NCBI GenBank assembly: GCA_030265395.1
Contig: JARFYF010000007.1
Coordinates: 23,346,755 to 23,410,754 of the forward strand
Origin: Rhina ancylostomus
Taxonomy: Eukaryota
DNA length: 64,000 nt
Direction of reading: 5' to 3'
Shown here: positions 3,246-61,849 of the stretch, one piece after another
Layout: the number at the start of each line of letters is the position of its first letter
Position numbering within the stretch: position 1 is the first letter of the stretch
Program-made: the position numbers and the translations under genes
Notes under the pieces: generated by a model
Told to the model about the DNA's origin: nothing
The model's input: only the letters and a program-made list of their open reading frames with translations
Databases searched by the model: none

Positions 3246-3414
3246 ATGCTCATGGAGGTACCTTTGTCACCAAGCTCAGGCTGTGCCTATCTGAGTTCCC
3301 TGTCACCTCAGGGCCAGGATATGTACCTGAGACTGGATCGGTCACAACGACGATCACCGTACAGGATGAGCAGAATCATTGCAAGACAGCAGCTGCTGAC
3401 TATAATTCAGCAAG
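3246..3414 (+). CDS. STARD8: First coding exon of a DLC-family RhoGAP/START gene (STARD13-alpha-like N-terminus; gene is STARD8 or STARD13)
   Basis: Encodes MLMEVPLSPSSGCAYLSSLSPQGQDMYLRLDRSQRRSPYRMSRIIARQQLLTIIQQ. This aligns ungapped (36/56 identical by my count) with human STARD13 as I recall it, MFSQVPRTPASGCYYLNSMTPEGQEMYLRFDQTTRRSPYRMSRILARHQLVTKIQQ. It ends at a phase-1 donor CAAG|GTATGT where that similarity stops, and there is an in-frame TAG upstream at 3147. The family call is secure. The paralog is not: STARD8 is preferred only because of the exon at 56257, and STARD13 is possible. Confidence 0.9.
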
Positions 3415-5361
3415 GTATGTCTTTCAGTATTTATGAAGTATTTCAGCAGTTGGTTCCTAATTACTGTGAGATAAAAATAAAACAAGTGGCCTTTGTTTAG
3501 GAGAATTCTTTCAACAGCAACTGCATCTTAGCTTACTAATTTGGAGTAAGTTTTATCTTACTAATTTGAAGCCTATAGCAGAAGTTTTGTCTTCCACCCT
3601 TCCTGCTTAAGATAAGTCTATAATAAGAATCTCTTCTCTTTTCAGCATTTATGCTGTTCATATAGTTTAGAGTGAAAATTCTCTTTTGCTGTAACAGGTG
3701 GGAATTATAAGCAATGCATTATATCCATGGCATGGTCAATGTCCAGCAGTCAATATCAATTGTGAAAGCATTAATATAATAACAATATGACATTTATGGA
3801 TAAACGGATCAGTGTACTTGTCAAAAGATTTTTTTTTCCTTTCCATGTTCCCTAATATAATTAGATATCTATAGAAATCATTTTAACATTTTGAACTATT
3901 AAACATTGTTTTCACATGGGAAATTTAGCAATTTCTATTTCATTGCATTACTATTGACAAATCAACAATCTGAATCTTCTTAAAACACAGGTATTTATGT
4001 CTTGAACATATAATAAGGCCCTGCCCCTTTTAATTAAAATACTTAAATTACCTGAATTTCTCATTAATTGAAGTTGTTCTTTCAAAATAGAACATTAACT
4101 AGTTGTGAGTCATCAGCTGTGTACCTTTTGGGTTCCATTGCTTAGCAACAGAGTTTAATCTTTTACAGCAGATCTCATACCAACAGCTTTAATCATCCTT
4201 ATTTAGATTGCAGGAAGATTGACTGTTTAGTAATCATTCCAACCAGCCTCATCTGTTAATCACCCACTGCATTCTGCCGATTATGTGTCATATGAGTTGC
4301 TACATGCTCTATACTTTTGAAACAAAAATTGTTTGCCACAAGCTTTGGACATTTTGCTAACTTGTGTCAATTAAGGAACAATCTATTCAAAAGACCATTT
4401 AGGAATATTTTGTGCAGTTGGAAGTCTGTTTTCATTTGCTACCTATCCTGGGAAAGATTCAAATGTATTATCTACTACTGTGTGATCTATTGTAGGGCAT
4501 TTCTTTTTACCCAAAAGTAAACATTTTGTTAGAAACTATTTAAATAAATGGTGGTACCATCTCTTTGTTGGGTGTGTTAAGCACACTGTTTTGAATCTCC
4601 ATTTACAAAATATTCATTAAAATCATTTTCCTACTAGTTTGTTTGGGGAGTTTAGTAACATGGCAAATAAAACAGTAATGTTTTGATGGAATTGCCCTCA
4701 CCAGAGAAGTGGAAAGTTAGTGGTTTGCAAGCTTATTTATATCACAGTTGATCATTATTCAGAATGTGTTTAAGGTTAAGGTTGTCAATGAGCTGCTTGT
4801 AGATATGTACACCTTTATCTAAAATACTATGTTCACAACATAATTGTCTCTCAATTTATTAGAGCTGCATTTGATCTTGACAGGAACAGTGCTTGTTCTG
4901 GAGCTGAGATGCAAGCTCCAGACTATTCTGAAGACTTCCATTCCACCCCCCCCCCCCAAATTTCTTTTTACCATCAGAATCATAGCTACACTTCCCTACT
5001 CAAGCTCAGGGCCAGTTAAAACAAAAGTTGCCTTGTCTGTCTGATCTCATTAAGTACAGTTACGTGGTAACGGCTATCTAAGAACTGCCTGCTTTATTTT
5101 AATTGGCCTCTTTCTGTTATCCAAGGACAGTGCTCTTGAACAGTTATAAAACAGTTGTGTTTTTTTTGATGATGCTTGCTTTTCTATTCCAAAATTTCTT
5201 TCCTTATTAGCCGGTAAGCATGCAGAATATCTTGTTGCCTTTGTAGTTACTGAAATTTATTGATGTATGTGCAGAATTAAAGTCAATACAGATGAGATAA
5301 TAGGGAGACATTGTATACACATCCAAGGTAAAGGTTTTTCTGCTGCTGTTGTCAGGATTGG

Positions 5362-5412
5362 GATCTTGTTCTTAGGCAGTCCCTCAGAATCAAGGATGAC
5401 TTGCTTCCCAGT
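5362..5412 (-). mobile_element. RTE LINE extreme 3' end
   Basis: TTCTTAGGCAGTCCCTCAGAATCAAGGATGACTTGCTTCC is the reverse of the motif at 6750-6800 and 18260-18300. Confidence 0.65.
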
Positions 5413-6129
5413 CCAGACAGATATTTGGATAGATGTTCCTTAAGACCCATTCACTCTGATGGAGTAGAATTTAACTTGGGTCTTGAAGATTTCTGTAATA
5501 TGGATGATGTAATGATTGGGTTAATAACAATTCCAGGTGCTGTGTTCCTATGAAACTTGTTCCACCAGATAAAAAACAAGTGGCTTGCATGTGCCCTGCC
5601 CAAGTATATCTGAGAGTGTTTTGAAATATTTCCTTAATCTTAGATCTGAAACATGTCCTAACCATGAACCTGGAAAATGTGTCCTATTTATCTGATGTAC
5701 TTCTTTCAAGAAATTTCTCGGTCTCTGAACAATACAAAGAGTTTGTTTTGCTGTGTGAAGTTATGCATTTTTCTTTCTTCTTCATTGTAATGACAGGGAT
5801 TTTTGTTTTGCTTAGCATTTCCAACAAATTTGATTAAACATTTATGCATGACGTTCAACTATATTAATTAATGAAAGAAAATCAGTGATTAAACTGCCCC
5901 CAAGCATCCATTCTTCTTGGCTGCTGAGTCAGGCTACTGACTGGAAACAGTGTTGGAAAGCACATTGAATTGTACTTGCACAATATTTCTCCTTCAAGAG
6001 TTTATCCAATTCCACTATTTTTCCATTGCTGTTCATTACAACTCATGGCATAATTATTTTAATATTGACTTCAGCTCTTTTGCAACTACTTTGCTGGGAA
6101 TGGTCGCTCATCTGCCTAGGAACAAAGAA

Positions 6130-6445
6130 GGCTGAAGAGAGATTTGATAGATGCATGCAAGATTATAACAAGTTTAGAGAGGAAAATACAGAGAAATGGT
6201 TCCCATTAATGGATGGTTCAAGGACCAGGACACACATTTAAAGCGTTAGGCAGAAAATACAAGCAGTATGAGAAGAAATGGAGAGTAGGAGAAGTGGAAA
6301 CAGTCTATCGAGACCTTTTAAATGTGAATTAGATAAACACATGGAGAAAAATATTTGCATGGTAAAAGGAAAGGAATAGAATGGAGATGCTCTACTAAAA
6401 ATAGGCACAGACCGAAACAGATTCTCTATTCTGAGCTCTGTCATG
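6130..6445 (+). mobile_element. Decayed CR1 LINE 3' fragment
   Basis: GAAGGCTGA..GAGATTTGATAGA, SRTRxH-like segment and CR1-type 3'UTR remnants. Confidence 0.55.
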
Positions 6446-6489
6446 GGAAGAGATTATTAGGCGGACAAAGAAAAGTTTCAAGGATGTGT

Positions 6490-6805
6490 AGAAACCCAGC
6501 ATTCCTACTGACTGTTGTAAATCTCTGGCCTATGACTGCTCAATGTGGAGAAGGAGCATTAGGATGCAATTGAGAAGATCAAAGCCATGGCGGAATACAT
6601 AGAGGCCCATGTAAGTGGCAAAAGTGCAAGAGGAGTGAACCACCACAAAAGCTACTCACCTGCCTACCCTGTCAGCCATCACCTCCATTTGTGGAAGAGT
6701 CTGTGATTCTTACAATGGCCTCATCAACCACCTCCAAACCTGCAAGGCTAAGGTGGAAGTAATTCGTCTTCAGTTCTGAGGGACCATGTAAGATGAAGAG
6801 GAAGA
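6490..6805 (+). mobile_element. RTE LINE 3' fragment
   Basis: Decayed ORF end (SLAYDCSMWRRSI...ICGRVCDSYNGLINHLQT, zinc-knuckle-like), then GTGGAAGTAA..TCTTCAGTTCTGAGGGAC..AAGATGAAGAGGAAGA tail. Confidence 0.75.
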
Positions 6806-8544
6806 CAGACTCAATGGCCTAACTGTTCTCCTGCGTGGTGACAATTCTATGATTCTGTCAAAACTCTTTGTGGCTTTGATTTTTGTGGCCTTTTGCTGTT
6901 GTCTCTATATCTAATTGGAGGGTCCCATTGTATTTGCCTTATTCCCATTGTACTGGAAACATGAAATCTTTGTATTGAATTACCAAAATTTAGAGTATTG
7001 ATCAATTTAGGAGATGTACAATGAATTGTACATGCATGCACTCTTTTGGTAAAAATGTAGATTAACCTTCAGTATTCAAGTGAAACAATGTAAAATTGCC
7101 AATATATTGTTTTCTTGCTCCCGATGAAGGATGGCTGAACATCAGTTCGTTAAGGTCTTAGCAGCTTTGAAAGAAAAGCAGATATGCATTGGCTTTATTG
7201 CTGTAGCAAAAGCCATAAAATCAGGCTTTTCCAGTTACTGAAGTACATTTCCAGATGGTGCACTGTGATCCAAGCCATCATTCTGAATACAACTTCTCAT
7301 TTTTTGGTATGCAGGAAAAGAATGCCCAGTACCACTCCTAAAGGTAAAGGGATTCAAAGGACCAAGAGTCATGAGTATTTATAAGGGTAACTACAGCAGC
7401 TATGAGGTCTGTATTCTAGCCACCAACAAAACAGCTTTGTTTTCAAGTTAACTTTGAATCTAACTCACAGATAAGAATAAAATCAGATTAATCAGTAAAG
7501 ACGTGCAAACTTTTGTGCTCAGTTGGGCAATGATGTCATGGTGCTGCAATATTTCTTTCAGAATACATTTGAAACTTTTTTGCTTTGATTTGAAATAAAT
7601 TAGCACAAAGCTCCATTCTTTGCTAGAGATGTAATGTATGTTCTAGCACATGACCTGGTGGCCATTGTGATATGGGAGTGGCATTTAGAGCACAGGATGT
7701 TCCAGACTTGCTTGGTGGGGGTTGTGTCTGTTGTTTACAGTTTGGTTAATTTCTGCCTAGTCTGCAAAATGCTATTTACAGCATGATATGATATCCAGTT
7801 CTGAAGCCTAATGCTTGCAACTCGGGTTATTTCTGTGCATTGCACGGAGAGGTACTTACAGCTCAAGTTAGTTGTAGTTGTTTCAGGTCATTTACAGGTT
7901 ATGAGGGACCATTGCAGCAAATATTGTTTACAGCACAAGTTCTTCCCAAGTTCTTCAAGGAATGATTCTTAAATATCCTAGCAACTGAGCCAACTGCAAT
8001 ATGAAAAATGTATTGAATTTTTTTGTAACATTGGAAGTTTTCACATGGATATAAGCATATCATAATGGTTAAAGAAAAAGATGTTATGAGCTTTCTTATT
8101 ATCCATTAATCAAAACAAGCTGTAAAAAAAAATATATAGTTTAAAATATTCTTCTGACACTTAGTAAAATTGGTTGTTGGGAATAAGCTTAAATGGGGGA
8201 TGTTGATGAGAATATTCACAGATGTGTTACAGACTCCTGGGGAAAGTGTTTGTATTTCCAATGTGTGTCCTTGAGTGCATCAGTAATGGGGTTATTAACA
8301 GGACAAACAAATAGTACAACTTCCCAGGGCCAGCCAAGTCAATCTATAAATGTTCAGCTGAATATAACAAATAAAGCAGGATGATGTTAAGAAAGAAAGA
8401 ATAAAGTGAACTTATGAATCAAAATACTTAATTTAGAACTTATTTTTATTCCCCTTTTATTCCTCAAACTTGGAGGAAAAATTTTTCCGTCCAGGCCGTT
8501 AAGAATTATGGATTCAGTATTGATCCAATTCTGGCCTTGTGCCC

Positions 8545-8800
8545 TCCTGATTTGATTGGACCTCCTGGGAGTTGTGCTTTCAGCTGGGAGAACCTAAATT
8601 CTGAAATGTTCTCCCTGTACCTCTTTGACTCACAGCCTTCCACCTTCCTCCTTTAAGATGGTCCTTTGAACCAAACTTTTGGTTATCTGCCCCATTTCTC
8701 CTGACAGTGCTCAGTGTTGAATTTTCTTTTGTAACTCTCCTATATAGTATCTTGGAATGGTTTACTGTATTAAAGGAATTGAATAAATGCAAGTTATTTT
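8545..8800 (+). mobile_element. L2-type LINE 3' end
   Basis: GCTTTCAGCTG..AAATTCTGAAAT..CTCCTTTAAGA..CTTTTTGGTTATCTG..TAAATGCAAGTT tail, with related copies at 18340, 29035 and 48570. Confidence 0.65.
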
Positions 8801-9063
8801 TTAGGTAGTTTTTATAAGATTTTATTTGTTGAATGGAGCTGCAAAACCATGGCTCTCCTTGGCTAACCAGTTCCAACTCCATAATGTCATGAATAAATTT
8901 CATAAAACCACATTTTTATTCCTGTGTTTTGTTTCTTTATTGTTCATTAAATCTAATTTCCACACAATCTCCAAACATGCTATGAAGGTCACTTGGCTGT
9001 TGTTCTCCAAGATCCTATTGGTGTTAGGCACAGGAGTAACTTGGTTGCAGCAGCATTCAAGTG

Positions 9064-9415
9064 CAGGGGCAACACGGGAGTTAATTCTTGCTGCCTCATA
9101 GCTCCACGGACCCAAATTCATTCCTGATCTCTGGTGTTGTTGGTGTGGAATTTGCACATTCTCCCCATGACTGCATTGGTTCACTCCAGTTGTACCTGTT
9201 ACATCCCAAAGAAGTGCTGGTGGATTGATTGGCTCCTGTCGGTTACCCCTCGGTGTAGGTAAGTGGCAAGAGAATCAAAAGGGGAAGTTGTTAGCCATGC
9301 GAGAGAGAATAAGTTGCAGGGCTACAGGGGAATAATATGAGGGGGAATTGGACTCAGACTGATGGAGGTTTCCCTCTTGGCAGATAAAGGGCTGAATGGC
9401 TTCTATCTGTATTTT
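9064..9415 (+). mobile_element. Old V-SINE
   Basis: Head GCTGCCTCATAGCTCCACGGACCC, core GTGGAATTTGCACATTCTCCCCATGACTGC, CATCCCAAAGA, and tail GGGCTGAATGGC. Confidence 0.8.
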
Positions 9416-10449
9416 AAAATGTGCATCAATATATGTCAGTAAAACATTGTTGTAGTAGAGGAAATGCTACATACAACTACAATTAAGAATCTCAAATGTA
9501 GGGTGTATTAGATCAGAAAAAGCCTTTGGACTTAAAGAATATTAATTTTATTCTGATTATGTTGAGCAGTATAGTCATAGCCAGTTTATTACTATGTTGC
9601 AGCATCTAGAGAACTTTGAATGCTTGTCCTTGAGTACTTCTTTCTTCCCTGATGTAAATGTAACCAGCTGCCTGAGGCTCACTTTGTAGTTTAAGCTTCT
9701 AATCCTTAGTATCAGTTTTAGCTCTGTACTGTACAATCTGCAAGGTCAGAATCTCCTCACGGTAATATAGTAGCAAGAATTGTGTGCAGTATTCCATGTA
9801 GAATTGAACTAGTTAAAATTCCCCCCAAAGCCTTCATGAGAAGGAAGTATGGGTTTAGGTGGTTCATCAGGAAAAATTCTAAGCACGTTAGAAAGCAGTT
9901 TTGGCTTGACAGAAATTATTCTAGCAGCCAAATTGTCCCAAGAAGCTGAATGGCATTTTAAATATGTTAATGAGCTTGACAAAATGGACAGTTTGGTTTT
10001 TTGGGGAAATTTGGCAGCTGAAACTGCTATGGGGCAAAGAAACACCTTTACAGGAGGAACAGGAATGCTATCCCTTGCTACTTGTCTTGCACCCTGCACA
10101 AGAATGATAATGAGCCAGCTCTGTCGGTCAATTTGTCTTTGGGCAGGGAATGTGTAGCCTGTGAAGTTAAATCGCTATTACATATAAGGAAAGCAGAGTC
10201 CCAACTGACACTCTGCCTCCTGCTTATACCACCCACACCAGTAAATATCCAAGTCTTTCTCACCAATGCTAAAATGGAGCGGAAGAGCAAGATGGAAGCA
10301 AAGTATTAGAAAGCAAGACCCGGACATGAGAAACAGAAAAGGAGCATAAAGCAGGAAGAGGTAGAAAGAGTGGGAGCATTTATTAGTCAGGATGAGGCTT
10401 TTTAATTCAGTTTATGCCTAAAAGGACATTAGCCTAAAATTCTCTTTAA

Positions 10450-10950
10450 ACAGCAGCAGGACTGAGCTGAGAGGAAGTTTCTTCACTCAAAGGGTGGCAA
10501 ATCTTTGGAATTCCCTACCTAAGAGGACTGTGGCGGTGGTTCAGTCACTGAATATATTCCACAGGGATTGATAGGTTTTTGGACAATACAGGAGTTGTGG
10601 TATATAGGGTGCTGAGGTCAATGGACGGTCACGATCTTATTGAATGATAGAGCAGGCACAACAGAAAAAATGGCCCACTTCTGATTCCCGGTAGATATAT
10701 TTTTGAAAGATTGCAGGATTGAGGACTGTGGCAATCTGGCACAGGGGAGGCCTGGGGTAGAACAGCTATGATCATATTGAGTGGAGAGGCAGGTTTTAAG
10801 GGACCAGTTGACCTATTCTGGCTTGTGTTTCCTTGTGTGTTCTTATGTCTATTAAAGAAGGTGGTTCACCACCACCTTTGCAAGAGCAGCTTGGAATAGG
10901 CGATAAATGCTGGTCTTGTCAGTGACACTTGCACCCTGAAAAACCAATTG
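10450..10950 (+). mobile_element. CR1-type LINE 3' fragments (composite)
   Basis: TTCTTCACTCAAAGGGTGGCAAATCTTTGGAATTCCCTACC (FFTQRVANLWNSLP), two 3'UTR remnants, and a second family's end (CACCACCACCTT..ATAAATGCTGG). Confidence 0.75.
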
Positions 10951-11984
10951 CAAAAATGTCAAATATTGGTGGTGTAAGGCAGAAGGGATTGCAGTGGGAC
11001 AAGTAAAGCTACAAAAGAGATCCCCAATCAGATTAACCCAAATATTTGTTTTTAGTTCATTACAGATTTAGCAGCCAATCAAACATATTTACTTCACTTT
11101 AACCAACCTCTACCCACAGGCAGGTTTGCAGTATTGGAGTATTGTCGGGGAACTCGGAACTCATTTTCCCAGGACCATACTTCCTGCCAACAACTCAATT
11201 TCCCCCATTTCCACAAAAACCTTGCCTCAGAACAGAATAGTAGCTGTCACATTTTTTTGTTACTGAATGTGAATTCCATACTTCCTTTGTATTGCCTGAT
11301 GTATGAATATTTTGATCTGAACTAAGTCATTTTTTAAGTTAACACTGTCAAAATTGATGAAATATTAAACGTAACCCTTGGGACTCCCGAAAATTCTGCA
11401 AAGAAAGCAAGATATAGAGAGTTTGATTAACTGAATGAATATTGCTGTGTTTATGTACTCTCAAAATCCTTCACATGCTCCCTACTTATCCAGATATTTG
11501 GTTTAGTTCCTGCAATGAATTGACTGTTCATATATTCTAATTAGCATTGTCATGTTATTAAATATTGAGAGCAGTTGCTCCACAAAATACATCCCCTGTT
11601 TAAAAGCTTCCTGAGTTGATAATGTATAATTCAATACTATCTCATTATTATTTATATACTACCATTATGCTTGGGGAGGTTTTACTTCATTTAAGAAGAC
11701 AGCTTTTTTCAATACAAGACAAAATAATACAAACAGTGAAGGAATATTTGTTTTCCTTCATTGCTGTATCAAAGAGTAAAAACTGACCACGTTTATTAAT
11801 GTGTGTCAGTGATGAGTTAATGGGGGACCCCTTGGTCAAGAGATTAAGATTTAATGTTAGAATTTAAAAATAGCCATTGATGCCACTAATCAGTTAACAC
11901 ATAAGACAAAATACTGGAGAGTGACTACTGTCCCATTTCCTGAAGATAGACACTTCTGAAAATATCAGAGTAATTATACAATAT

Positions 11985-12440
11985 GAACATATGAATTAGG
12001 AACATGAATTGGCCACTCAGTCACTCTGCCCTGCTCCACTCCACTATTCAGTAAGATCATGGCTGATCTCATTGTAACCTCAACTCTGTCTTCCCAGAAT
12101 GCACTGCCAGGGATGGTGGTGGAGGTGGGTATGATAGAGGTGTTTAAGAGGTTCTTAGATAGGCACATGAGTATGCAGAAAATGGAGGGATATGGACCAT
12201 GTGCAGGCCGAAGGAATGAGGTATTAGCATAATTAGTTCCGCTCAACATTGTGGGCCAAAGGGCCTGTTCCTGTGCTATACTGTTTTATGTCCCCATCTT
12301 CCCAGGATAACCTTTCACTCCCTGCCTTATCAAGAAGCCATCTCTGTCTGGAAAATATTCAAAACACTTTGCTTCTATTGCCTTTTGAGGAAGAGAGTTC
12401 CAAAGATTCATGACCACCTGAGTGTAAAAAATTTCACCTT
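11985..12440. mobile_element. Nested CR1 3' ends: + strand copy (~12098-12291) inside a - strand copy
   Basis: The outer minus-strand 3'UTR (AAGATCATGGCTGATC..GGAAGAGAGTTCCAAAGATTCA) is split by a plus-strand end (AATGCACTGCCAGGG..GGGCCAAAGGGCCTGTTCCTGTGCT). Confidence 0.75.
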
Positions 12441-12734
12441 GCATCCACCTTAATGAGATTGACAATATATTGCACTAATTTGAAAGCAGTGACTGTCATA
12501 GTCATGTATTTGAGAAGATCCCTATTTGGCATGGTCTTATTATTTACATGTATTATTTGATGCCTTTGTCATGCATTAATGAATCTTCTTTAATGAATCA
12601 AGAAATCATGAATCTATCAAGATAATCCCATGCGCTGTTGTTGTAATATCCTGGAAAGTGAATGGCACAATGCTCATCCCTTTAGTGTCATGGAATCCAA
12701 AGTTGATTTCACCTGGAGTAAATTGTGTTGGTGA

Positions 12735-13630
12735 TCATTTTGGGTGACACAGAAATTGGTTTGGGCTTGAATAGTAAAGAAGATAGTTTCAAGCTACAGA
12801 ATGTTAGCGATCAGCCAGTAAATTAGGCAGAGCAATGGCAGATGAAATTTGATCCTGATAAATGCAATGTGATGCATTTTGGGAAATTAATAAGGATAGG
12901 ACACGTACAGCGTTATAGGGCCCTTCAGAGTATTGAGGAACAGAGGGCTTTTGGCGTATGTCCAAAGATCCCTGAAGCACAGGTAGATAAAGTGGTAAAG
13001 AGGGCATAGAAGATGATCACCCTCATTAGCTGGAGCATAGAATATAAGAGCAGGGAAGTTATGGTGTGGCTTTATAAAACGTTGGTGTGGCCGCATCTGA
13101 AATATTGTGTGCATTTTTGGTTGCCGCAATATAGAAAGGACATGATTGCTCTGGAGAATGTGCAGAAGATATTCACTATGATGTTGCCTGGGATGGAGTG
13201 TCTCAGTCATGAGGAGAAACTGGATAGGCTGGGTTTGTTTTCCTTGCAGCAGACAACACTGAGGGAGGACCTGATAGATGTACAAAAGTATGAGGAGCAT
13301 AGATAGGGTAGATAATAGTAAATATTTCCCCATAACAGAGGAGTCACTAACAAAGAGGGTATAGGTGCAAAGTAAGGAATGAAAAGTTTAGAGGGAATAT
13401 AAATAAGAGTTTTTTTTCACCCAAAGGGTGATTGGAGTTTGGAATACACTACCCGAGAGGATGGTGGAAGCAAACACTCTCACAACATTTAAATTTATCT
13501 AGATGAGCATTTGAATCACTGATACATAAAAAAAACTATGTACCAAGTGCTGATAAATGGGATTAGTATAGATGAGTACTTGATGCAGGGTGGACTGAAG
13601 GCACTGTTTCTGTGCTATATGACTCTATGA
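12735..13630 (+). mobile_element. CR1 LINE, 5'-truncated (RT C-terminus plus 3'UTR)
   Basis: WQMKF..KCNVMHFG, then LYKTLVWPHLKYCVHFWLPQYRKDMIALENVQ..EEKLDRLGLFSL and FFTQRV..WNTLP. Terminal TGTGCTATATGACTCTATGA. Confidence 0.92.
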
Positions 13631-14444
13631 AATCACCACCTTTGTGAAATTGGACCAGGTACTTGTTGTTGGGATCCATGCCAGCAATATGACCTCTAGC
13701 ATCAGACACACATGCCACGGTGCCCCACCATTCACCCATTTCCAACTGAAGTTAAATCTTCTACGCTGAAAGAATGACTGTAGTATAAAAAAAATCACAA
13801 TAAACAAGAAGCATAAACTGCTGAGATCCCCAGCGAGAAGTGAATTAAAGGATCCCGGAAGTGATTTTGATCACAGCATCTGATACATTTTGCAATGGTC
13901 AAGTTATCTGCATGATTTTTCCAAGCTCCATTATTGCGTGCAGCCTTTTTGATTTATGCACCTCAGTACAAACGCTGCCTGACTGGTCGCCTCATTGGTC
14001 ACCTCACACTGTTGTTGGGCCAATCTTGGCACCAAACTCCAGCAGAGCAGTAAGTCGCCCTGCTGAGGGAAAGGGATGGCTACATATGTTGAAAGTTGTA
14101 TTGTCCCTCTCCCTGCCATTTTCCTTCACCTCCATGGCAGGCTTTTGTGCAGTTGGCCTGTGGTTGTCATGGAGAGATGTCCTTTAAGGCTCTCAACCTT
14201 TCCTGCACACAACATGGCAAAGACAAGCTCGTCATGATGATTCTCTGCAGTTCCTGTCAGGAAGTTTGTAACTTGGTACTTGGAACAATGACAGTACAAT
14301 TTCAATGGGCCTTAGAACTAATTTGCAATTTTTCAGAGCATGTAAATGAATCCTCGGCAAATGCTTTCAATCTCCATTCAAACTTTCAAGGTCACTGGAC
14401 CTGTCAGCACAAGCTAACCGAAGCATGAAGTGAAGTGTTGCGAT

Positions 14445-14550
14445 TAAGGGTCTTTGACCTGAAATGTTAACTCTTTTTCACAGACAGTGCCTGCCTTGTT
14501 GAGTGCTTCCACCATTTTCTGTTTTAAATTTTAGATTCCTAGCATCTTTA
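14445..14550 (+). mobile_element. Penelope pseudo-LTR fragment
   Basis: AGGGTCTTTGACCTGAAATGTTAACT..TGCCT..TGAGTGCTTCCACCATTTTCTG, matching the terminus at 27440-27579. Confidence 0.65.
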
Positions 14551-47902: not shown

Positions 47903-47979
47903 AAATGCTAGAAATAACTATTTTATCATTGTCTTGAGGAACCTATGTCAAAAAGACTGACCGCTTTTCCACATTTCCT

Positions 47980-48830: not shown

Positions 48831-48854
48831 AGCCAGTTAATTGGATATCCAAAA

Positions 48855-49382: not shown

Positions 49383-50710
49383 TTAATGTATTTATATAAT
49401 TGGAAGTTGTTCATAAAATAATTGAAGATGAGTCAAGTTATGTTGCACTCCTGCTTTTATTTTTGCTGCTGCTTGATGCATTTACCACGTAGTGCCACAA
49501 TTTTCTGAATTACCCATCCAAAGTCAAACATGAGCAAAACATTGCAAGTTTACTGGCAGATTGCATTTTTGCTCCAGAATCTTCTGTGCATCTAACACAC
49601 AGCAGATTCTAGACATGTGCAATAGCACCCAGTGATGCGCATTGCATTTATAGATGTCACTTTTGGGATTTTCATTCATGTATGAGCGGTCTGCAGGCTA
49701 TTAGTGAAATCACAGGTTTGCAACATACCCATGAAGTCTGTCTGAATGATTTAAAGGAGATCTCCCTCAGTAGGTCCTAGCATGGCCTGGAGATGCTGAT
49801 GATTGGCCCCCTTAAGCAAGTTATTTACCCTTCTCCACTTTGGGACCAACTCATCCCCACACACAGATCCTTAAAGCCAACCTGGTAGCCCCACCCCTCC
49901 CCTTCATTAGATGATTCCATCTGACTCCAACCAAAAATAACAGCCCCTGTCACTTAGAATCCTTTGCAACCAACCCTAGTCCCTCTACTTAACGACACAA
50001 TCCATGATCCTTCCCCTTACCTCAGACCCTTCTTTCTCCTCTGATCCAGCCCTTCCCAGATAACATGAAAATGATCTTGCTCTACTCACTTTCTTTCCTA
50101 AATAAGAGAACCCAAGAGAAACTCAGCTTCTTAGCACTGTCTGTTCACCCATCTCATCTTTATATTTAGTTGCCAGGATATTCTTTGAAGTGTCTTAGTA
50201 TTTTAAGCTTTTGGGCATTTCAGAGCATAGCTTCATGGTAATAGCCTGAAAAGGAATGAGCTATGGGAATTATGAGGATAGCCAAAATTTGTCTTCCATG
50301 GCACCTGGTAGGCAATGGAACGAAATTCTGCTGTAACCCATGCATTTATTCTGTCTGAAGTCACTAACATTTCAGAAAAATATGTAGAAACTGTTTTATT
50401 TCCCTGCCGAAATAATTTTTAATGGAATTTATAATGTATGAAAGAAAAGTCTTATTACTAATGCCTTTCAACTCTTTAACGTCTTTAAGTTCACTAGGAC
50501 AAATGTTATGTAACCTAACCTATTTATGAGGCATGATTCGGAGTAGTTGTATGAAAGTGCAGTTGAAGTATGAATGCCCTCTCAGCTTATATATAGTCAC
50601 CTTAGGCATCATAAAACTTGATAAGAGGCACATTGTCTGTAACAAGTGAATCTGAAGGAATTCAAATATTGTCCTGATGCACTATCAATTTGTGTCATAG
50701 TTTGACAATA

Positions 50711-51024
50711 CAGGCTGTTCCCAGGTAATGAATGGGTTCCATTTTTACAGACGTCCATAATTCGATTTTGTTCATAAGTTGGAAAATACACAAAAATCAC
50801 TCAATGTGGTAACTATATTTCCACAGTATTGTAATGACTTGCAGCAAAAACACCCAAGACATAAGAAAGAGCAACTACTAAAAATGGGGGAAGAGAAGAA
50901 ACTAGTTCTGTTGTTTATAGGAATAAGCATATTATGTATGTCGGACTCTTGAATTTAATTATGAGAGCTCAGTCATATGTACAGCTCTCCATAGGTAAGG
51001 AGTTCATAACCTGGGGACAGCCTG
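50711..51024. mobile_element. Tc1/mariner-pogo (Tigger-like) MITE, 314 bp
   Basis: 22-bp TIRs CAGGCTGT(T/C)CCCAGGT(A/T)ATGAA (20/22 match), flanked by TA on both sides, with no coding capacity. Confidence 0.88.
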
Positions 51025-54000
51025 TAACTTCCAGCTTGTATTTAGCATTAAGATCATGCATGAAGTATTCAACTAAAATTAGCCATCCTCTGGAATAAAC
51101 AAATCAACCAATACAGAGGCTTTCAGCTGAGCTATGGTGTCTATTCTTCATTGACAGAAATAAGTATTTGTATAGCAAGTATGCTGTGTTATTTCTTGGG
51201 AGTGCTTTCTGTGTATGTGCTAAACCTTTACTCATCACGTTTCACTGAGACTATGTTAGATACATTTTGTTTTGTTGCTTTGAGAGGATGAGCAAGGAAT
51301 ACAATTATTTTCAGTCTTTTCCAACACTAAAGCAACAGGACATAGATGCCCTGCTCATTGTAATAATCTTGGAAAATTATTCTGTTCGCTAATTGTGGTG
51401 ATGTGTCTAAGAAACATGTTTGCAATTGCAATATAAATAGCCAAGAGAGGAACTCTTACCTTCCTGGCTCCAGATGATATTGTGCAGGATGACTTGCATT
51501 AATTTGTCAATTAGATTTCCAAGTTTGCAGACAGATCTGAGGTTTGGAATTCAGTGCAGTTTCCCATCATCTGAAGGAATGTCTGATGTCCATTCCTTGA
51601 ATATGCTTTTATTCCATCAGCTGGAAAACTCACCATTTACCTCTTTAGGTGATCTCCAGTAATGGCAAATTTGAAGATGAGCAGTGAGTTTAGTTGAGTT
51701 CAAGACTGATTTTCTTCTCGTCCCCAACCAGTGCCGTGCAGAAAGATCATCTGGTCATTCATGTGTCAAAGATGTGGATATTATTTGCTGTTGTTTTCAG
51801 TCAAGAATCCCAAAATAATGCTCCATCATAGCTTCCTCCTGAAGTTACAGCCATCACTAAAGCCAGTCTTCATCCAATTTGATTCTATCCCCATGATAGT
51901 GAAAAATGACTGAGAGCATTGAGAAGGCCATGGAACCAGAACTCATCCCAGTTATGAAGCTGTAGACATGCTCCAGAACAGTATGGTCTCTAGCCAACCT
52001 TTCTCCGTACAGTTACAATACTGGCATCTACCTAACAATGTGGAAACTTGCCCAGGTGTGCCCTGCCCAAATCAGCAGAGTAATGGAAAGGGTCATCAAT
52101 AGTGCTTTTAAGTGACATTTCCAACACACTTACAATGTCCAATGATTCGTAGTTTTGGTTTTGGCAGGACCACTTTTCCCTGAATTCACTACAATCCCGA
52201 TCTAAGCAAAGAAAAAAAACTAAATTCCAGTTCCTGAGACTGACAGCAATTTCCACACGTGCTTAGAAGGCTATACTGCTGATTTTGATTTCTAGTAATG
52301 ACAACTTGCAGTGCAAAATCCTTTAGAAAATTTAAGAACATGTTTAGCTTTAATGAACAGTCAAAGCCATTTGGCAATAAAATTTATACCTGTGCATTAT
52401 ACTTTGTCAAAATTTCACTTTACCATGTTTTGGAGGGCATACATGCACATTTTTGATGCAATAGGGTGAACAGATGCTCACAAGCCCATAACCACCAAAT
52501 CAACTATAAATTGTAGATGGTTACTGGGGAGGGCCATGCCCCTCTTGCCCCTCCCCTGTAGACTCACTGAGGAGAGGACACCCTGGTGTGGCTCATTATG
52601 ATTGGCATAATCAGCACAGTTCTCTGCTTGGGACACTATCCATATCTTTCTTAAAAAGTATTTGGTTGTCCTGAGAGGATCAATTAAAGGAGAAAATATG
52701 AATCAAGAACAGGTGAATTAGGATATTATCCTTCAGTATTGTATTGACTTACAAAATTCTAATGAAAATTTAAATTCGAAAAAGGGCAACATGACTTTAA
52801 TAAAACTTCTAAACTGTTACCAATATTAGGGAATAATTCTTACCTAATGGAGCCCATAAGGAAAATAAGACTAAAACTCAGAAGTAAGATGATTATATGA
52901 ACATTTCTATGGTGCCCATTACACAGCTACAGTGGGAGCCCCAGCTCACTTTTCCAAATTTAAATTAATCTTTTTGCATGTGTGAAGCTTTAGCAAACCT
53001 TTATTTAATTTTAATAGCAGATGGAAAATCCAGTATCCAAAAACAGGCTGTGCCCTAAAGAATTAACAATAAAGCTGTCCTTTACCAAAAATATTTTCAA
53101 CAGTAATGTACTTAAAACCTGATCGAATTTCTCATTTAAATTTATGCACAAGAATCATTAGTGGCAAGAGACAATGCCATTGTTTCCTGTTTATTGTTCG
53201 GTTATTCATGTAATTCAGCTACAGGAAATAGCCAAGGAAACTATCAAACTAAAACAATAATACTTTGTAAAAGGCGGGGCTTTCTTGGAATTCCTTCACA
53301 TTGAGGGGACAGTTTTCCTACACCTCAGCTCTCTGAGCCACAATTTCCCTGAGGTTAAATTTTCTGGGATATTGATTGCTTAGACCTGGTTGATTGTTTT
53401 AATCAGTCCCAAATTCTATCTCTTCAGCGTGGCTGTTGTTCCGTCAAATTAAGATGCTGATATTTTGTTTAACAAGAAGGATGTGATTTGTAAACGAAAT
53501 CAGAAGATTAAACTAAAATTTATATTTTTGGAATTTAATAATGGTCCAGCCTTTGGAACAGATGATGGAAATTGAAGTGAATTAAATTCTTATTCCATTA
53601 TTTCTGAGTATTTCTGAGTGTGTGAGTTACACAATGGTTTTATCACAAGACAAATGAAAATACAGAAACCTTAACTTATTCTTTACTTCAATTTACTATT
53701 TCAAAATTTATATTTTAGAAACAGAGAACTACATTTAAAATTATTAATTGCACAGAAACAACCTGGTACCTTGTTGTAACTGTGTTCATTTTTACAGGTC
53801 CAAATGAACAGTTCATGACAGCCAGTAAAACCAAGTCTGATGCCACCTGCACCAATCAAAGTCTTTATACGTGCACCTCTCTAGGGTGACTGGTGGCAAT
53901 CAGAAGATGAAACTTTTGTATATCCATTAACTGTTGAGGAAAATATCACATTAAGGTTGGGGGTTAAGAAATTAAGCGATGTGCCTGTCTGTTGTAATAT

Positions 54001-54849
54001 TGTTGCACTCTGCTTGCAGCCTCAGTTCAGGTCTGACTGCCAGAGAAAAGGAGTTGTGTTTATTTCCCACTCATTGTCTAAGTGAGTAAATGAATGAAGG
54101 TGATCCTCGGCTCTAGACTAGTTTAGAAGAACCCACGATACACTGCATTAGTGACAAGGCAGAGGTCCTAAATGAAGAAAGTAAGACTTGATGAGTTTTC
54201 AAATTTGCAGAGTTGTAGTGATAAAGAAGGCATTCCGTGAAACGTAAATAAGACAATCATACGCATAAAGGGAACACAAGATAGCACAAAAGGAGTAAAT
54301 AGAAAGCTCTGGAATACCATGAAACACAGAGGCACTTAGTATTTACTTGGAATATTTGGATACATTCTGCAATGATCATATCATTGTTGCCTGAAACATC
54401 TAGAATGCTGAAGAACAAATTGCGCTGATCCATGAGTTAAAAAGGCAAATGTCATTAGTCCAACATTTACACAACATTCTAGTCTTATTGGCATCATGAA
54501 GAACAACCAACATCTCATGATGGAACTCTTATGATGTTGAAAGCACGCTTCAACCCAGCACCATCCAACATTTTGCAGAGTTACACATTCACGATGTACA
54601 AACGATGCTGAGTGGCAAATGGAGATTATGTTGTCAGCTGGGTGAGCCATGTGATTTTTGGAATGTTTCTGGATGGACCGTTTAGTAAGGGGTGAGGGGA
54701 GGTTAAGTGATGAACATGTACAAGTCAAATTGTGTCATACTCAAACCTTACTTCTGAGAAGGCATGAGACCTGGGGTTTTGATGAAAATGCTGCTGGTAA
54801 ATATGAATGTTCCCATTCCATTGTTGAGACATCTAATAGGTCACCACTG

Positions 54850-55050
54850 ACCATCAAATACCCACTTACTCTGATCCTATTTCATTCTTTTCACATTCCC
54901 CTTCTTTGGGATGAGGGAGGAAACCAGAGCACCCAGGGGAAACTTGCACAGACGCGGAGAGAACACCACACAGACAGCAATGGAGATCGCAATTGAACCC
55001 AGGTCACTGGAACTGTGAAGCAGCAACTTTACTAGCTGCACAATTGTGTG
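54850..55050 (-). mobile_element. V-SINE fragment
   Basis: GGGAGGAAACCAGAGCACCCAGGGGAAAC..AATTGAACCCAGGTCACTGGAACTGTGAAGCAGC. Confidence 0.8.
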
Positions 55051-55690
55051 CTTCTTGGACAATTATCAGAATTAAACATTATTTTTGAATTATTTTCCCA
55101 TTCCACAAGTTTTGTTAATATTGTCCAGTAATTTCTTGCCGTTCTGCTCAGAATTGAACATTCCCCCGAGCTCCTCACCCCCATTTCTCGACATTGTTTG
55201 TTAATTTAGAAGTTGTCTTCTTAATTCCAAATATAAATCATTAATGTAAATTGTGAAGAGAAGTGATGCCAGCACTGATCTTTCAGGAACACTACTGCAG
55301 AGCATTTATCATTGAATGCTCGATTTGACCATTGTAGGTCAGCTTTATTCAAATCTGACATTCACTCAAATAAACGCTGTCACATAATCACAGCAAGGGA
55401 TACAATTTGCAGTTGATTTCAATGAAATAGTTCTAGTGTTGTATTAGTGATTCACTGGATGTAATGAGGGATTACTGCATGAGTTGATGTTATTGTTCTG
55501 TAAGCGTAGAATAGTTACGGTTAATTCGGAAGGAAAGTTACAACTTGTTTAAAATTATCCTGTCATTTCAATGAATGCTTGGAACAGATACATTTTCTTG
55601 CCAAAATAAATAAGATAACAAAAGTACAGTTTGGTTTGGTATAGTTCTTTGTATTGCTTGGCAGCCAATTGAAGTTAGTATCAGATTTTC

Positions 55691-56224
55691 NNNNNNNNNN
55701 NNNNNNNNNNNNNNNNNNNNNNNNNNNNNNNNNNNNNNNNNNNNNNNNNNNNNNNNNNNNNNNNNNNNNNNNNNNNNNNNNNNNNNNNNNNNNNNNNNNN
55801 NNNNNNNNNNNNNNNNNNNNNNNNNNNNNNNNNNNNNNNNNNNNNNNNNNNNNNNNNNNNNNNNNNNNNNNNNNNNNNNNNNNNNNNNNNNNNNNNNNNN
55901 NNNNNNNNNNNNNNNNNNNNNNNNNNNNNNNNNNNNNNNNNNNNNNNNNNNNNNNNNNNNNNNNNNNNNNNNNNNNNNNNNNNNNNNNNNNNNNNNNNNN
56001 NNNNNNNNNNNNNNNNNNNNNNNNNNNNNNNNNNNNNNNNNNNNNNNNNNNNNNNNNNNNNNNNNNNNNNNNNNNNNNNNNNNNNNNNNNNNNNNNNNNN
56101 NNNNNNNNNNNNNNNNNNNNNNNNNNNNNNNNNNNNNNNNNNNNNNNNNNNNNNNNNNNNNNNNNNNNNNNNNNNNNNNNNNNNNNNNNNNNNNNNNNNN
56201 NNNNNNNNNNNNNNNNNNNNNNNN
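55691..56224. other. Assembly gap immediately upstream of a candidate first exon
   Basis: Run of N ending 32 bp before ATG 56257. Confidence 1.
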
Positions 56225-56256
56225 GGAAGACAGAAAATTCACAGACAAGAGCAAAC

Positions 56257-56317
56257 ATGTTGGTTGCCTCTTTCTGGAGCTGCTTATTTCGGGTGTACTC
56301 TACATGTCACTGGAATG
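56257..56317 (+). CDS. STARD8: Probable alternative first coding exon (STARD8-like N-terminus MLVASFWSCLFRVYSTCHWN)
   Basis: ATG in good context (gcaaacATG, A at -3), then 20 codons plus 1 nt to donor AATG|GTGGGT (phase 1, same as the 3246 exon). The FWSC-FR motif resembles human STARD8 MPLLDVFWSCFRKVKC as recalled. Promoter and most of the 5'UTR fall in the gap at 55691-56224. Confidence 0.6.
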
Positions 56318-56519
56318 GTGGGTAATTGGAGTTTAATGCCACTGGATGTATCTGTACACTGAAGTGCATTTCATCAAAAAAGTTTAATCAGTGGATCAAT
56401 CAATAAAATTCAACAAATCCAGAAAGACAGAGCTGCCGTTACATTTTTGGCAAAAGAACTTCAACATAGGGTATCATTAATTTTGAGAAAACAAAGGAAA
56501 GAAACTAAAAAGCAAAGAA

Positions 56520-57130
56520 GTTGTATTTAAACCTGACTGGAATCTTGGTTAACCTTCTTGGAGTACCATGAACTGTTTGGGTCTCCAGCTTATAAGAGGA
56601 ATATTGTGATGCTCAAAGTTTTTATTAGAATGATACTTGAACTGAGTCTTTACATCCATTTGGCAAAGTTAATCAGGCAAACACTCATTCTGAAGAAAAG
56701 AGAAGAGTGACTGGATGGACATCTTCAGATTGCACTGCCAGAGAACGTGGTGGAAACAGTGTCTAGACAAGCACTTGAATTGCCTAGACATAGAAGGCTA
56801 TAGATTCAGCATTGACAAAGGTGGGCTGAGTGACTTGTTTCCATTCTGTATGTCTCTAAGAAAGGGTTCAATGAAGTAGATGCAGTTTCTGCTTCTACCA
56901 CTGGCAAACTTTAGATACTTGGTTGAACAGAGAGCATTCAGAATGTGGAACTTGCTACCTTATCGAATAGTTAAGATACATTCAAAGCACAGTGGGTTAA
57001 GCATGGAGGGGAAAAGAAGGAGAAGTACAAAAATTACTGGAGCCATTTGGAGAAGGGTAGAGGGAAATCCATTTTGACAGTGAACTCTTGCATGGGTTTA
57101 TTGGCCAGAATGGACTCTTTGTGCTATAAG
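56520..57130 (+). mobile_element. Decayed CR1 fragments
   Basis: TTGGAGTAC..TTTGGGTCTCCA, CACTGCCAGAGAACGTGGTGGAA, CTAGACAAGCACTTGAAT and GAATGTGGAACTTGCTACC motifs. Confidence 0.6.
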
Positions 57131-57164
57131 TACTTTATATTGTTGTTATCCTTTACAACCTTGT

Positions 57165-57275
57165 TGTGTCCATGAGAAATTTCTCAAAGCACTTACAAGA
57201 TAATACTTTTGCAGTGCAGTCAGTGTTGTTATTATGACTGCCATGACAGCAAATTTGCACACAAGAGCAACAGCA
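57165..57275 (-). mobile_element. DeuSINE 3' tail fragment
   Basis: CTCAAAGCACTTACA..TACTTTTGCAGTGCAGTCAGTGTTG..CAGCAAATTTGCACACA, the reverse of 45620-45700. Confidence 0.55.
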
Positions 57276-57874
57276 TTGGTTGCATCTTTCACCAGCTTGT
57301 GTTCCTTTGAGCTGAGATTCTCTGCAGAGAATGCAGATGTGCCGAATTTAAATCACTGAGTTGATGGTAGCAGTGTGCTGAAGTTGATTAGGAGTTTGAG
57401 ACATGCCTGATTCAGTTCAGTGAACTACAAATGACCTTTCAAGTGTACGTTCTTCATTTTTAGAAATCAACATGCTCATTTTTAACATTTCTGCAGGGAT
57501 GAACAGAAATGCAAGCTTTTTTAAATGTTGGTGCGACCTGAGTTTCTTCTGTGCAATCTTATCTTTGCCAATAGAAGATTTAACAATTAGGGCCCATCTN
57601 NNNNNNNNNAATTATTTTGTTTGTATTAACAGCTACTTGATCAGTCAAGCACTAGTCCAGGATATCAAATTAACTTCTAAGAGTCAACTAATCAGACTGC
57701 ACAATGATTTTAAAAGTCTAGTTTATAAATCCATGAGATGTAAAAGCAAAGCTTTCAGTTATCAATCTCAGCACATGGAAATCAAAACCAAACCAAGCTG
57801 CCAGTAAGTTTGAGCCCTCCTGTGATGCTTTGCACTTGTGAAAATTCATTTAACTGCCCAGTTTGTAATATAAA

Positions 57875-58580
57875 ACCATTGAATTGTTGCAGCACAAAAG
57901 GAGATGAAACAGCCCATCACATCTGTGCTGGCGTTTTGCAGGAAGAAACCTAGTCATTTCCATTAACTATTTTTCCCCCATAGCCATGAAATTTCATTTA
58001 CCGATTTTGTTTTTGAAAGCTTCCAGTCTGTTTACAGCACCCTTTCAAGTGGTAAATTGCAGATTATTACTACTTGCTGCAAGTTTTTTTCCTTGTATCT
58101 ACTTTGGTTCTTTTACCACTCACCTTAAATCAGTACCTTTTGATTGTCAACTCTTTACCAATGGGAATGGTTCCTCTTTATTTACTTTGTCATGATCCAC
58201 ATGATCTCATATGCTTCTATCAAATTTCCTTGCAACTTTCTTTAATGTCATGGAGAATAATCCTAGTTTTTCTAGTCTAGCTATGTAATTTAAGTCCGTC
58301 ATCACTGACACATCTAGAACTCTTTGCTTTGGATGTTCATAATGTTTTTGGATGTTCATAAAGTTTTCACATCTTCATGAAGTAAATCGTGACAAGACTC
58401 TAGTTAAAGCCAATTCATTGTTTCATAGAGTTATAATGTCTTTGTTTTTGTACTTTGTCTCTGTTGATAGATCTCAGGTTCCCTTAAACATTTTTATCTG
58501 CTTTTTCAATATGTCCAGCCACTTTTAAAGATTTCTGAACATGCATCCTCTGCTCTCTATTGCTGCAGTCTCATCAGAAT
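57875..58580 (-). mobile_element. Old CR1 3' fragment
   Basis: GCAGCACAAAAGGAG..CAGCCCATC reverse 3'UTR, and GGAGAATAATCCTAG (GLFS). Confidence 0.6.
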
Positions 58581-59032
58581 TATACCTTTTTTAAAAAAAA
58601 TATTGTCTCCTCTTGTTTATCCTACTAAAAATGTATTATTTTACACTTCCATGCATTACATGTTATGTTACTTATCAACAGGCTTTGAAACCTGCTTGGT
58701 GGGAGGTCAGGTAATGCTGCTGTTTCAAAAATATCCCACAGTAGCATTCTTAAACCAGTACAACTTTCAAACAGTTAAAACTGCATCAAAATTTGCATTA
58801 ACATTCTTTATATTAACATACAGTACATTCGCAGTAACATGCATGAATTGCCAAGTTGATCTCCTATTTATCACACGTGATATTCCACCAATATTTTTAT
58901 ATATAAATTATGTACCAAGGCTCAATAAAAATATAAAGAAAACTTAATGGTGTAATAAAATACTTAGCCCAAAGACCATACAGTTTCATTCTTAAATAAA
59001 AACTGATTGTTGTCTGTTCACTGACAGACTCA

Positions 59033-59157
59033 GTGTGCTGATTGGTACCTGGTGACCAGTGGAGCGTGTGAGCCCATTGATACCTGGTCACTGGCAGAGA
59101 ATGTGAGCCCATTGTTTCCTGGTCACTGGTTGAATGTGTGAGCCCATTGTTATCTGG
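59033..59157. repeat. 35-bp minisatellite, about 3.5 imperfect copies
   Basis: GTGAGCCCATTG recurs at 59068, 59103 and 59138, the first two followed by CCTGGTCACTGG. Confidence 0.85.
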
Positions 59158-60994
59158 CTATTCTGGTTTCCTTCACTGAAAATGTTCACATACCTCTCAA
59201 AAAGCTAACTTAAAGGCAGAAAATAAGAAGAAATACTACATTGCAAAAGCAGCCTGGTACATGTGGTTATCTCCCAATAGTCCACTTTCTCTGCCAATCT
59301 GCTTAAGTAGCCCTCTCTCACCCCAACCCACCAGAGAATCCTCATCACAACACCTGTCAGCCTAACAGAAATGGACATTTACTTTGTAGATTGGGGTCTA
59401 ACCTTCCCTTAGGCAACATCATAGCTACTTTATCCTTTAATGCTCTTAATTTTTCTTCTGACACCAAGTGAAATAACAACTAATCATACATTCCTTTAGA
59501 ATTGTTTTGTCATATTTCAATCAACTTCAAGTCTGTCCCAGGTGAACAATTACATTTTTAAAACTGATAGGTTAAACCTTTAAATACAATTTATTGTGAA
59601 AGTTCTGCATGTCTCTGTTGGTCAGGATGAATTGGAGGAACAGCTGCTCTATGATCGGGGCAACAGGCTGGATTGGAAAGTCACCTGATTGTCCACAGCA
59701 CCTTAATTAGTCAGCAGCTGCTCTTTCTTTCTTTGCCAGTTTGAACACTACAGCTTCCCTCTGAAGTTGTCTTGGGTCAGAAGTTAAGAATGAGTCAGCA
59801 GCTGTAAATAGTGTCCATTTGTAGTGGAAATGAGATGTAATCTGTTCTCCAGATAGACTTCTATTTTGCCCAAATAAATAACATGCAGTTTCCATTTCAA
59901 TGAACCCCATTATCATTACTGAATCATAAACAAGTATAGCATCAAAGGAGATCTTTTGGTGCATTGGAGTATTGAATAAAGGATTTTTTTAAAATCTACT
60001 TTTACAATGAATCTGCAACTGAAAATAGACACTTTTTGAATGACATGTATTTGTCTTGGAGTGTGGTGTTGTTGCTGAAGTTATACTGGCATCTTTGACA
60101 AATTGTTTCAGGTGTCCGGCAATCCAACTGGATAGATGTAACTAGGGTGCCAGGTCAGTGGTCTGATGCTGCCCCATTTTCTATTTGCTTGCAAGTCAGT
60201 ATTTTGAGTTTTATGAATGGCACTTGGAGTTAAGACCAGGTCTTTGTTCCCCCCTAACTAAAAGTAGTTTCTATTATATTGCTTGATATCATCAGAGGAG
60301 TGAGAAACATATAAGCTTGTTTATAGCTTTTATGGTGGTCATTTATATTATGGGTTATATTTGTAAAGCTTTTTAATGGTTTGCAAAGCTGTTTCTCATT
60401 CAATAATTAATATAAAATGCAGAAAGAAGCAGTACAAGGACTAGCCAGAAAGCCTGATGTGAATGTTGACAATTCTGTAGCAGTCTGTTTATCATATGAT
60501 TGACCAACTTGCTTTACATAAACACCATGACGGCAATAGCCAGTATATGCAAAACCAACTGGTTGTGACAGCATGAAGTTAATAAGAATTAGATAAAGCT
60601 CTATCCTGCCTTTAGCATTTTTCATTCTGTGCTGACATGTAGGAGTAATGTCTCTGAAGCCCCACCTCATTCAAACTGATTCCAAGGATTAGCCCAGTTT
60701 AACTGAGTGGGTGGATTTCTTGGTATGTACGTGCTTTAAGTCTGCTTGGATAAGGATGTAGTGAAAAGCTGTGCTCTTCTGCTTTTTAGAGAAACTTGCT
60801 GTTCAGTGGATTGTGAGGCTTCATTTCATAAAAGAGCACCTTCATCTGATTTGTCTGTATCTGACTAATTTTCAGAAAGCACTGACAGATGACTAGATAG
60901 GTCCAATGCTGTCATTTAATAATTTTTAAATTAGATAAAGTTAAACACTGGAATGTGTAGCTAAATTATAAAGCTTATCTGATAAATCAGTTGA

Positions 60995-61031
60995 ATGCCA
61001 AAAGAACCCAACTCCATAATGATTCTACCAA
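60995..61031 (+). CDS. STARD8: Probable alternative first coding exon (DLC1-alpha-like N-terminus MPKEPNSIMILP)
   Basis: 12 codons plus 1 nt, then a consensus donor CAA|GTAAGT (phase 1). Same length and MIL position as DLC1 MCRKKPDTMILT-Q as recalled. The second ATG (61019, MIL) has A at -3. Confidence 0.6.
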
Positions 61032-61849
61032 GTAAGTAATTTTACTTTTCTAATTTTTGCAACAAACTTTTTATTGTTTTATCAAGAGTTACGTTTAAAG
61101 AGAAACATGTTAAATGCTTAAAAGGTGTTAAATTCTCCTGACGTCTGTAATTTTTACGATTACAGTAGTTGCAGCTTTTTTAGTTAGCCCTGCAAATGTG
61201 GCACTCAAAAACTTCTGTAGCAGTCTGCTTAATAGATGGCCGACCAACTTGAACTGTGACGCACATGTTCTACATATGAATGATTGGGGGAGGGAAGGGA
61301 TGGGAAGATAGATAACATTACAAATTATATTATTATCAAAAAATAGAAATTTGATTTTTTGACGATTTCTTAACTCTGTGCATTTGTGAGTAAGCAAAAT
61401 GTGACACTTTTTATTCATGGAGCTTCTCAGTTTTTGTCATCTTTTAAATTTTATTTGGCACTCTTCCTGCCAGCTCTTAGCAGCCATTCAATGTTTTAAA
61501 AAAAATGTAAAAGTGTAAATCCAGGAATGCAAAAGTATAAAAACAGATGTCTGTCCCATTCTGTACTTTTTTCATTCTCTTTGTGAGCCACATGCCAGAT
61601 GCTGCAATTTTACTCTTCCAGGAAGGTGAGATGTTATCTGGCATACCTCCCGTTCTTTAACATCCTAAAAGGTAAAGAATCAACAAGATAAAAAGCTTCT
61701 TGCAGCCAGTATTTTCATTCACTGCACATTGAGAGAGAACACTAATGCTCTATATTTGATCAGCCATGACAATTGTTTCTTTTAGACCACCTTGCCAGAC
61801 TCTGACTTCTGCAAACCCATGGAACTACAGAGTACTGACAACTAGCACG

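Follow-up and report, generated by a model that had tools for sequence, protein, structure and literature searches.

STARD13 first exons in the batoid Rhina ancylostomus and the leaders shared across the DLC family

The STARD13 locus and the first exons in the window

The stretch of Rhina ancylostomus DNA analyzed here (the window; 64,000 nucleotides, G000:C7:23346755-23410754) falls inside the 5' intron region of STARD13 (DLC2), a gene of the DLC family. The exon encoding the SAM domain is located 8 kb past the end of the window, the RhoGAP and then the START exons map 3' of it, and Klotho follows downstream on the opposite strand, tail to tail with STARD13. In an earlier reading based on the letters of the window (the sequence-only reading), it was proposed that this single gene carries the signature first exons of all three human paralogs, STARD13, STARD8 and DLC1, and that such a cassette predates the vertebrate genome duplications. 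The three ATG frames on which the proposal was built, here named exon A, segment B and exon C, are present, each with a phase-1 GT (Table 1). As we read the locus, with good though not complete confidence, A is spliced and C very likely spliced to one SAM exon, likely from separate promoters, B is most likely a chance frame, and the leaders of the gene likely predate the duplications for the most part. The headline of three paralog signatures in one gene falls, since B is not of STARD8 type.

Four DLC-family genes are found in this genome. In a quick maximum-likelihood tree with 37 rows (these four genes and 33 proteins selected from 626), they fall out as STARD13 (contig C7), DLC1 (C52), STARD8 (C112) and a member of a fourth clade (C74), which also includes the teleost protein si:dkeyp-23e4.3; SH-aLRT support is 100 for each placement. 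In the same tree the C7 locus is sister to Pristis STARD13 (support 100), and the closest named proteins are batoid, with Pristis reaching 95% on one exon. The Pristis ortholog (P0321) carries SAM, RhoGAP and START, as assigned by Pfam, in the order typical of the family. In human, STARD13 likewise neighbors KL. By the tree and the Klotho neighbor, the two kinds of evidence on which the sequence-only reading would have the paralog assigned, the gene is the batoid ortholog of STARD13.

Table 1. Features of the STARD13 locus and of the other three DLC loci. Positions with two dots count from the first letter of the window; a slash marks the exon-intron boundary.
Feature	Position	Strand	Distance to SAM exon	Description
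Whole window	1..64000	+		intron of STARD13 isoforms starting further upstream (D, E, L)
Exon A, coding part	3246..3414	+	-69 kb	56 codons + 1 nt; donor AAG/GTATGT; STARD13-alpha-type alternative first exon
Segment B	56257..56317	+		intronic ATG frame, phase-1 GT; most likely chance, not an exon
Exon C	60745..61031	+	-11 kb	5' leader from at least 60745; coding 60995-61031, 12 codons + 1 nt; donor CAA/GTAAGT
SAM exon	G000:C7:23418920-23418991
Exon D (RRSFS first exon)	G000:C7:23322599-23322719		-96 kb	24 kb before the window
Exon E (34-nt exon)	C7:23283373-23283406		-136 kb	63 kb upstream of the window
Exon L (LDQL exon)	from C7:23236679		-182 kb
DLC1 homolog of L	C52:57479877		-256 kb
DLC1 counterpart of E	C52:57579529		-156 kb
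DLC1 exon C			-11 kb
STARD8 long exon			-66 kb
STARD8 counterpart of E	C112:74131430		-52 kb
STARD8 diverged D			-39 kb
STARD8 C-like			-7 kb
Fourth gene, D			-94 kb
Fourth gene, C			-14 kb

The RNA data come from a related species and are shallow, the SAM stretch being covered by 14, 3 and 2 reads in three runs. Six raw reads join the end of exon A to the SAM exon, and Mobula birostris STARD13 X2 (P0323) has an N-terminus identical to the peptide of A. Homologous to annotated alpha N-termini (the comparison used lizard and bird versions) and spliced to the SAM exon, A is a first exon of the STARD13-alpha type, as had been proposed. The peptide of exon C is identical to that of Heptranchias perlo STARD13 X4 (P0027). 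One RNA-type contig spans 60745-61031 and departs from the genome exactly at the donor of C, with 14 letters remaining, and the codon predicted at the junction, A+AG (Lys), is the one found in the models. It is very likely that C is spliced to the shared SAM exon in this gene, at a junction predicted for this species. The proposal that all three frames meet one SAM exon, as would be seen in RNA junctions, holds for A, very likely for C and not for B, which is most likely not an exon.

Both A and C are already annotated as N-termini of shark and ray RefSeq STARD13 models. When 92 chondrichthyan models are counted (after two N-terminal fragments were dropped), 19 start with A, 13 with C, 18 with the upstream exon D and 24 with the long form, and none with B; the remainder are 12 models without the start of the SAM domain and 6 others. 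In the models of Heptranchias perlo (X1-X5), Pristis pectinata (X1-X6) and Mobula birostris (X2), exons A, C and D and the long L/E form likewise precede this SAM exon, with no substantive difference from the present locus, and B occurs in none of them.

The donors of all first exons are in phase 1, so any of these exons reads in frame into the SAM-RhoGAP-START body. Most likely, each would have its own promoter, and the choice of promoter would determine in which tissue the protein is made and with which N-terminal leader, while the enzyme stays unchanged. C would add almost nothing to the protein and probably serves as a minimal start. Four upstream ATGs (60756, 60889, 60906 and 60953) are found in its transcribed leader (60745-60994) and could dampen translation.

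Two further observations concern the STARD13 gene as assembled. Its large serine-rich exon is absent from C7, where a 7,380-base gap stands at its place, and this exon and the next one are found on another chromosome-scale contig (C94:95.043-95.048 Mb), which is likely a misassembly. In the long-isoform exon at C7:23171990-23172856, the upstream ATG that serves as start in shark models is followed by an in-frame stop, so translation of this isoform would begin at the following Met, as it does in the Pristis and Mobula models.

Leaders shared among the four DLC genes

The best evidence for the ancestry of the leaders lies upstream of the window, in three exons (L, E and D) that were beyond the view of the sequence-only reading. 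D is joined to the SAM exon in an RNA contig of run X3, from a related species, and reaches 75 bits in STARD13 as well as in the fourth gene of this genome. E has the same length of 34 nt and the same phases in STARD13, DLC1 and STARD8, with a phase-0 acceptor in all three, and L matches between DLC1 and STARD13.

For C, the proposed DLC1 type is borne out: it is homologous to the first exon of the common short isoform of DLC1 (orangutan P0423) and has a positional twin in the DLC1 gene of this genome. The motif M-I-L-x, ending in a phase-1 donor, lies proximal to the SAM exon, with twins located 11.4 kb (DLC1) and 13.7 kb (fourth gene) upstream of the respective SAM exon. The exon ends in ATGATTCTACCAA/GTAAGT in STARD13, ATGATTTTAACAC/GTAAGC in DLC1 and ATGATAATAAAAC/GTGAGT in the fourth gene. 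Across the four regions, the C-like motif followed by GT occurs 15 times, four of these with a GT[AG]AG donor, and three of the four lie 11-14 kb upstream of the SAM exon.

The profile of exon A matches STARD13-type proteins only, with no match in the other three DLC loci or in the outgroup N-termini, so A is likely a later addition confined to STARD13. D is found in none of 60 chondrichthyan DLC1-cluster proteins and is present in amniote DLC1, which suggests a lineage loss. Taken together, the leader set was likely for the most part inherited from a single gene that existed before the duplications, the order L, E, D, C being kept and the losses differing among the four ohnologs.

The alternative that fares best is that A and C are real first exons whose likeness to short exons of the paralogs is of independent origin, inheritance being limited to the gene body. 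It draws on the shared core of C, which comprises four codons, on the lack of a counterpart for A and on the E exons, which are barely alike in sequence. However, it is already contradicted for D and L by the matches between genes given above, and the equal length and phases of E, the conserved exon order and the clustering of C-like motifs ahead of the SAM exon also argue against it. We consider it improbable.

Other observations were made on the same loci. In DLC1 (G000:C52:57724515-57724545), the ATG upstream of the MILT motif immediately precedes a TGA, so that the short isoform here starts at the second ATG; the same start is used in most shark models, and a longer one in tetrapods. A second C-like micro-frame (MLLT, phase-1 GTGAGG) at G000:C74:18266507, 72 kb upstream of the SAM exon of the fourth gene, is probably due to chance. 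The N-terminus of Heterodontus STARD13 X5 (P0332) corresponds to a repeat that recurs at several sites within these loci and is likely an exonized LINE fragment. Several apparent orthologs of STARD8 go under the name STARD13 or STARD13-like in databases (P0084, which groups with STARD8 in the tree, P0090 and many bird 'STA13' records), and the lizard STARD13 protein cluster also contains small spore proteins of bacteria, a clustering artefact.

Segment B and the first exon of STARD8

The combination of an open ATG frame with a phase-1 GT is common, with 952 instances at 748 donors on the + strand of the window beyond base 3420, and is by itself weak evidence for an exon. Scored with a rough donor matrix, A and C reach 5.9 each and B 3.2, and 19 donors with frames of at least 10 codons score at least as high as that of B. 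Conservation of the frame of B in related species, to which the sequence-only reading had pointed as a check, is not observed: in the DNA of a related species the start ATG reads ATA and two further amino acids are changed. The divergence of B (3 changes in 61 bases) proceeds at the same rate as that of the surrounding contig (33 in 571). RNA depth over B is zero in the three RNA-type runs, which is weak evidence, since contigs drop rare forms. When B was searched as a repeat, one weak second match, outside the frame, was found.

The likeness to STARD8 is at background level. Against tetrapod STARD8 first exons, B ranks 8th among 167,593 ungapped 15-mers of the C7 region. What speaks for B is that, in a gapped comparison, it is the best-scoring of the 385 + strand ATG frames of the window, which explains the impression gained in the sequence-only reading. 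Six of 10,318 other ATG frames, taken from eight strands, score as high, so that about 0.2 are expected per window, roughly a 1-in-5 event.

The architecture differs as well. In bird, turtle and fish models, STARD8 begins with a peptide of 15 residues, after which come 11 residues of the same kind as those at the end of the long isoform, so that the first peptide appears to join the 34-nt exon E; this junction is deduced from protein models, in a comparison that used fishes and tetrapods other than human. The acceptor of E is in phase 0, whereas B is in phase 1 and lies 120 kb downstream of E. A phase-0 first exon of STARD8 type was also sought upstream of E in all four loci, where the best scores were 29-31, none convincing, each range including 7-12 kb of N. 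Most likely, segment B is an open frame that arose by chance, and the claim that it is a STARD8-type first exon does not stand.

Two other explanations of B may be weighed against chance. B might be a young or decayed, species-specific minor start unrelated to STARD8, as its frame is open and followed by GT in this genome, its promoter side is hidden in an assembly gap and the RNA data are those of a relative; with a weak donor, no RNA cover and nothing conserved, this is very improbable. That B is a real first exon homologous to that of STARD8, so that the gene keeps all three paralog signatures, is the least credible of the alternatives: it has the top rank in the window, a short FW-C match, the phase-1 GT, an upstream flank hidden by a 534-base gap that ends 32 bases before B and shallow RNA in its favor, but it is largely refuted by the ATA in place of its start codon in a relative, and its absence from the models, the equally scoring background frames, the junction of the STARD8 peptide with E and the lack of any outstanding STARD8-like first exon upstream of E all count against it.

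Age of the leaders and biology of the DLC family

The age of the leaders was assessed with profiles trained on jawed vertebrates only, which were scored on 66 pre-SAM segments with 200 shuffles each (13,200). The D profile reaches 68-73 bits in hagfish, 20 in lamprey, 17.8 in the tsetse fly and 13.3 in a hemichordate, against a shuffle maximum of 9.4, and the L/E profile reaches 43-45 bits in lamprey and 18-19 in amphioxus, against a maximum of 12.0. In amphioxus and scorpion models, several leaders meet the same SAM junction. The proposal of a cassette older than the vertebrate duplications is right in outline, by way of L, E, D and C, that is, largely on evidence other than that first put forward; A, likely an addition confined to STARD13, and B, most likely due to chance, would form no part of it.

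Several points weigh against this account. RNA depth is low and comes from a related species, C is covered by the RNA contigs of one run out of three, and no C junction occurs among the raw reads. C amounts to a four-residue motif whose homology rests on position, phase and donor; the C-like versions of lamprey and STARD8 carry two extra codons and were unscored, and the lamprey isoform, with MILP two codons before the junction, is likewise an unscored four-residue match. For DLC1, D was found neither in the locus nor in a search of this genome, an absence that assembly gaps leave unproven, and L and E were not found in the fourth gene within 170 kb. The D-like leaders of scorpion (7.0 bits) and amphioxus (6.1) fall below the shuffle maximum. 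Cyclostomes share the first genome duplication, so the true outgroups are amphioxus, hemichordate and arthropod only, and the outgroup matches are at the protein level, in predicted models.

The fourth gene (G000:C74:18.17-18.29 Mb) lies tail to tail with an arginyl-tRNA synthetase gene and fits a complete set of four DLC ohnologs. Human RARS1, for its part, is located on 5q. The teleost gene si:dkeyp-23e4.3, or 'rho GTPase-activating protein 7-like', which is named as a DLC1-like gene in databases, groups with the fourth gene (support 100) and has both D and C leaders. Since the fourth gene is present in a ray, it is a gnathostome-wide paralog and not a teleost duplicate. Three vertebrate DLC members are counted in a passage of PMC9678365, and no paper pairing 'DLC4' with 'RhoGAP' was found.

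Alternative promoters are internal in the dystrophin family and truncate the protein, in contrast to STARD13, where short leaders are swapped on an intact body. Dystrophin, utrophin and DRP2 (Dp116, G-utrophin) likewise combine alternative starts shared among vertebrate paralogs with lineage-specific additions (PMC1790709). For the DLC genes themselves, alternative promoters are described as 'common among' family members (PMC3390377), separate promoters are stated for the mammalian genes (PMC5118400; PMC3390377), and DLC1 of mouse and human is described as having a conserved exon of 34 bp (PMC2839985), all in excerpts of these papers. Compared with the mammalian DLC1 isoforms covered there, STARD13 differs by its extra exon A, and the excerpts on these isoforms contain no matching of exons between paralogs, no dating and no mention of a fourth gene. 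No exon-level comparison between DLC paralogs was found in the literature, although a 2007 DLC-1 review and a 2011 DLC1-i4 paper may contain one. The age of the D leader and the fourth ohnolog add modestly to what is known and may be unpublished.

As to function, D has a basic net charge (+4 to +10) and contains an amphipathic stretch in six of six versions, and A resembles it in both respects, in an analysis with no control run. Such leaders would suit membrane or organelle targeting, and DLC1-i4 is called a putative mitochondrial protein in a passage of PMC5118400. Pfam returned no family for A or D, a PDB search with A no meaningful match and an ESM Atlas search with D no usable match. In Drosophila overexpression experiments, as given in part of PMC5854602, Cv-c requires its N-terminal third neither for activity nor for basolateral localization, so any function of the leaders would be regulatory.

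For the family as a whole, this is an evolutionary tidy-up of a known multi-promoter system, with no new mechanism; the striking original claim was wrong, and A and C are ordinary annotated first exons of STARD13. A wider reading, to which we give an even chance and no better, is that, ever since the bilaterian ancestor, the DLC/Cv-c RhoGAP has offered a menu of alternative leaders that meet one phase-1 acceptor. The RRSFS leader would then be an unrecognized conserved module of bilaterian age, without a Pfam family, that may target or regulate the enzyme, L and E would be pre-vertebrate, and jawed vertebrates would have kept a fourth DLC ohnolog beside the arginyl-tRNA synthetase gene that is apparently absent from mammals. 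DLC1 isoforms are silenced separately in tumors and reported to localize differently, according to passages of PMC5118400. The map of leader homology across DLC1, STARD13, STARD8 and the fly gene tells which isoforms should be compared, and the RRSFS leader, as the oldest, would be the likeliest to be functional.

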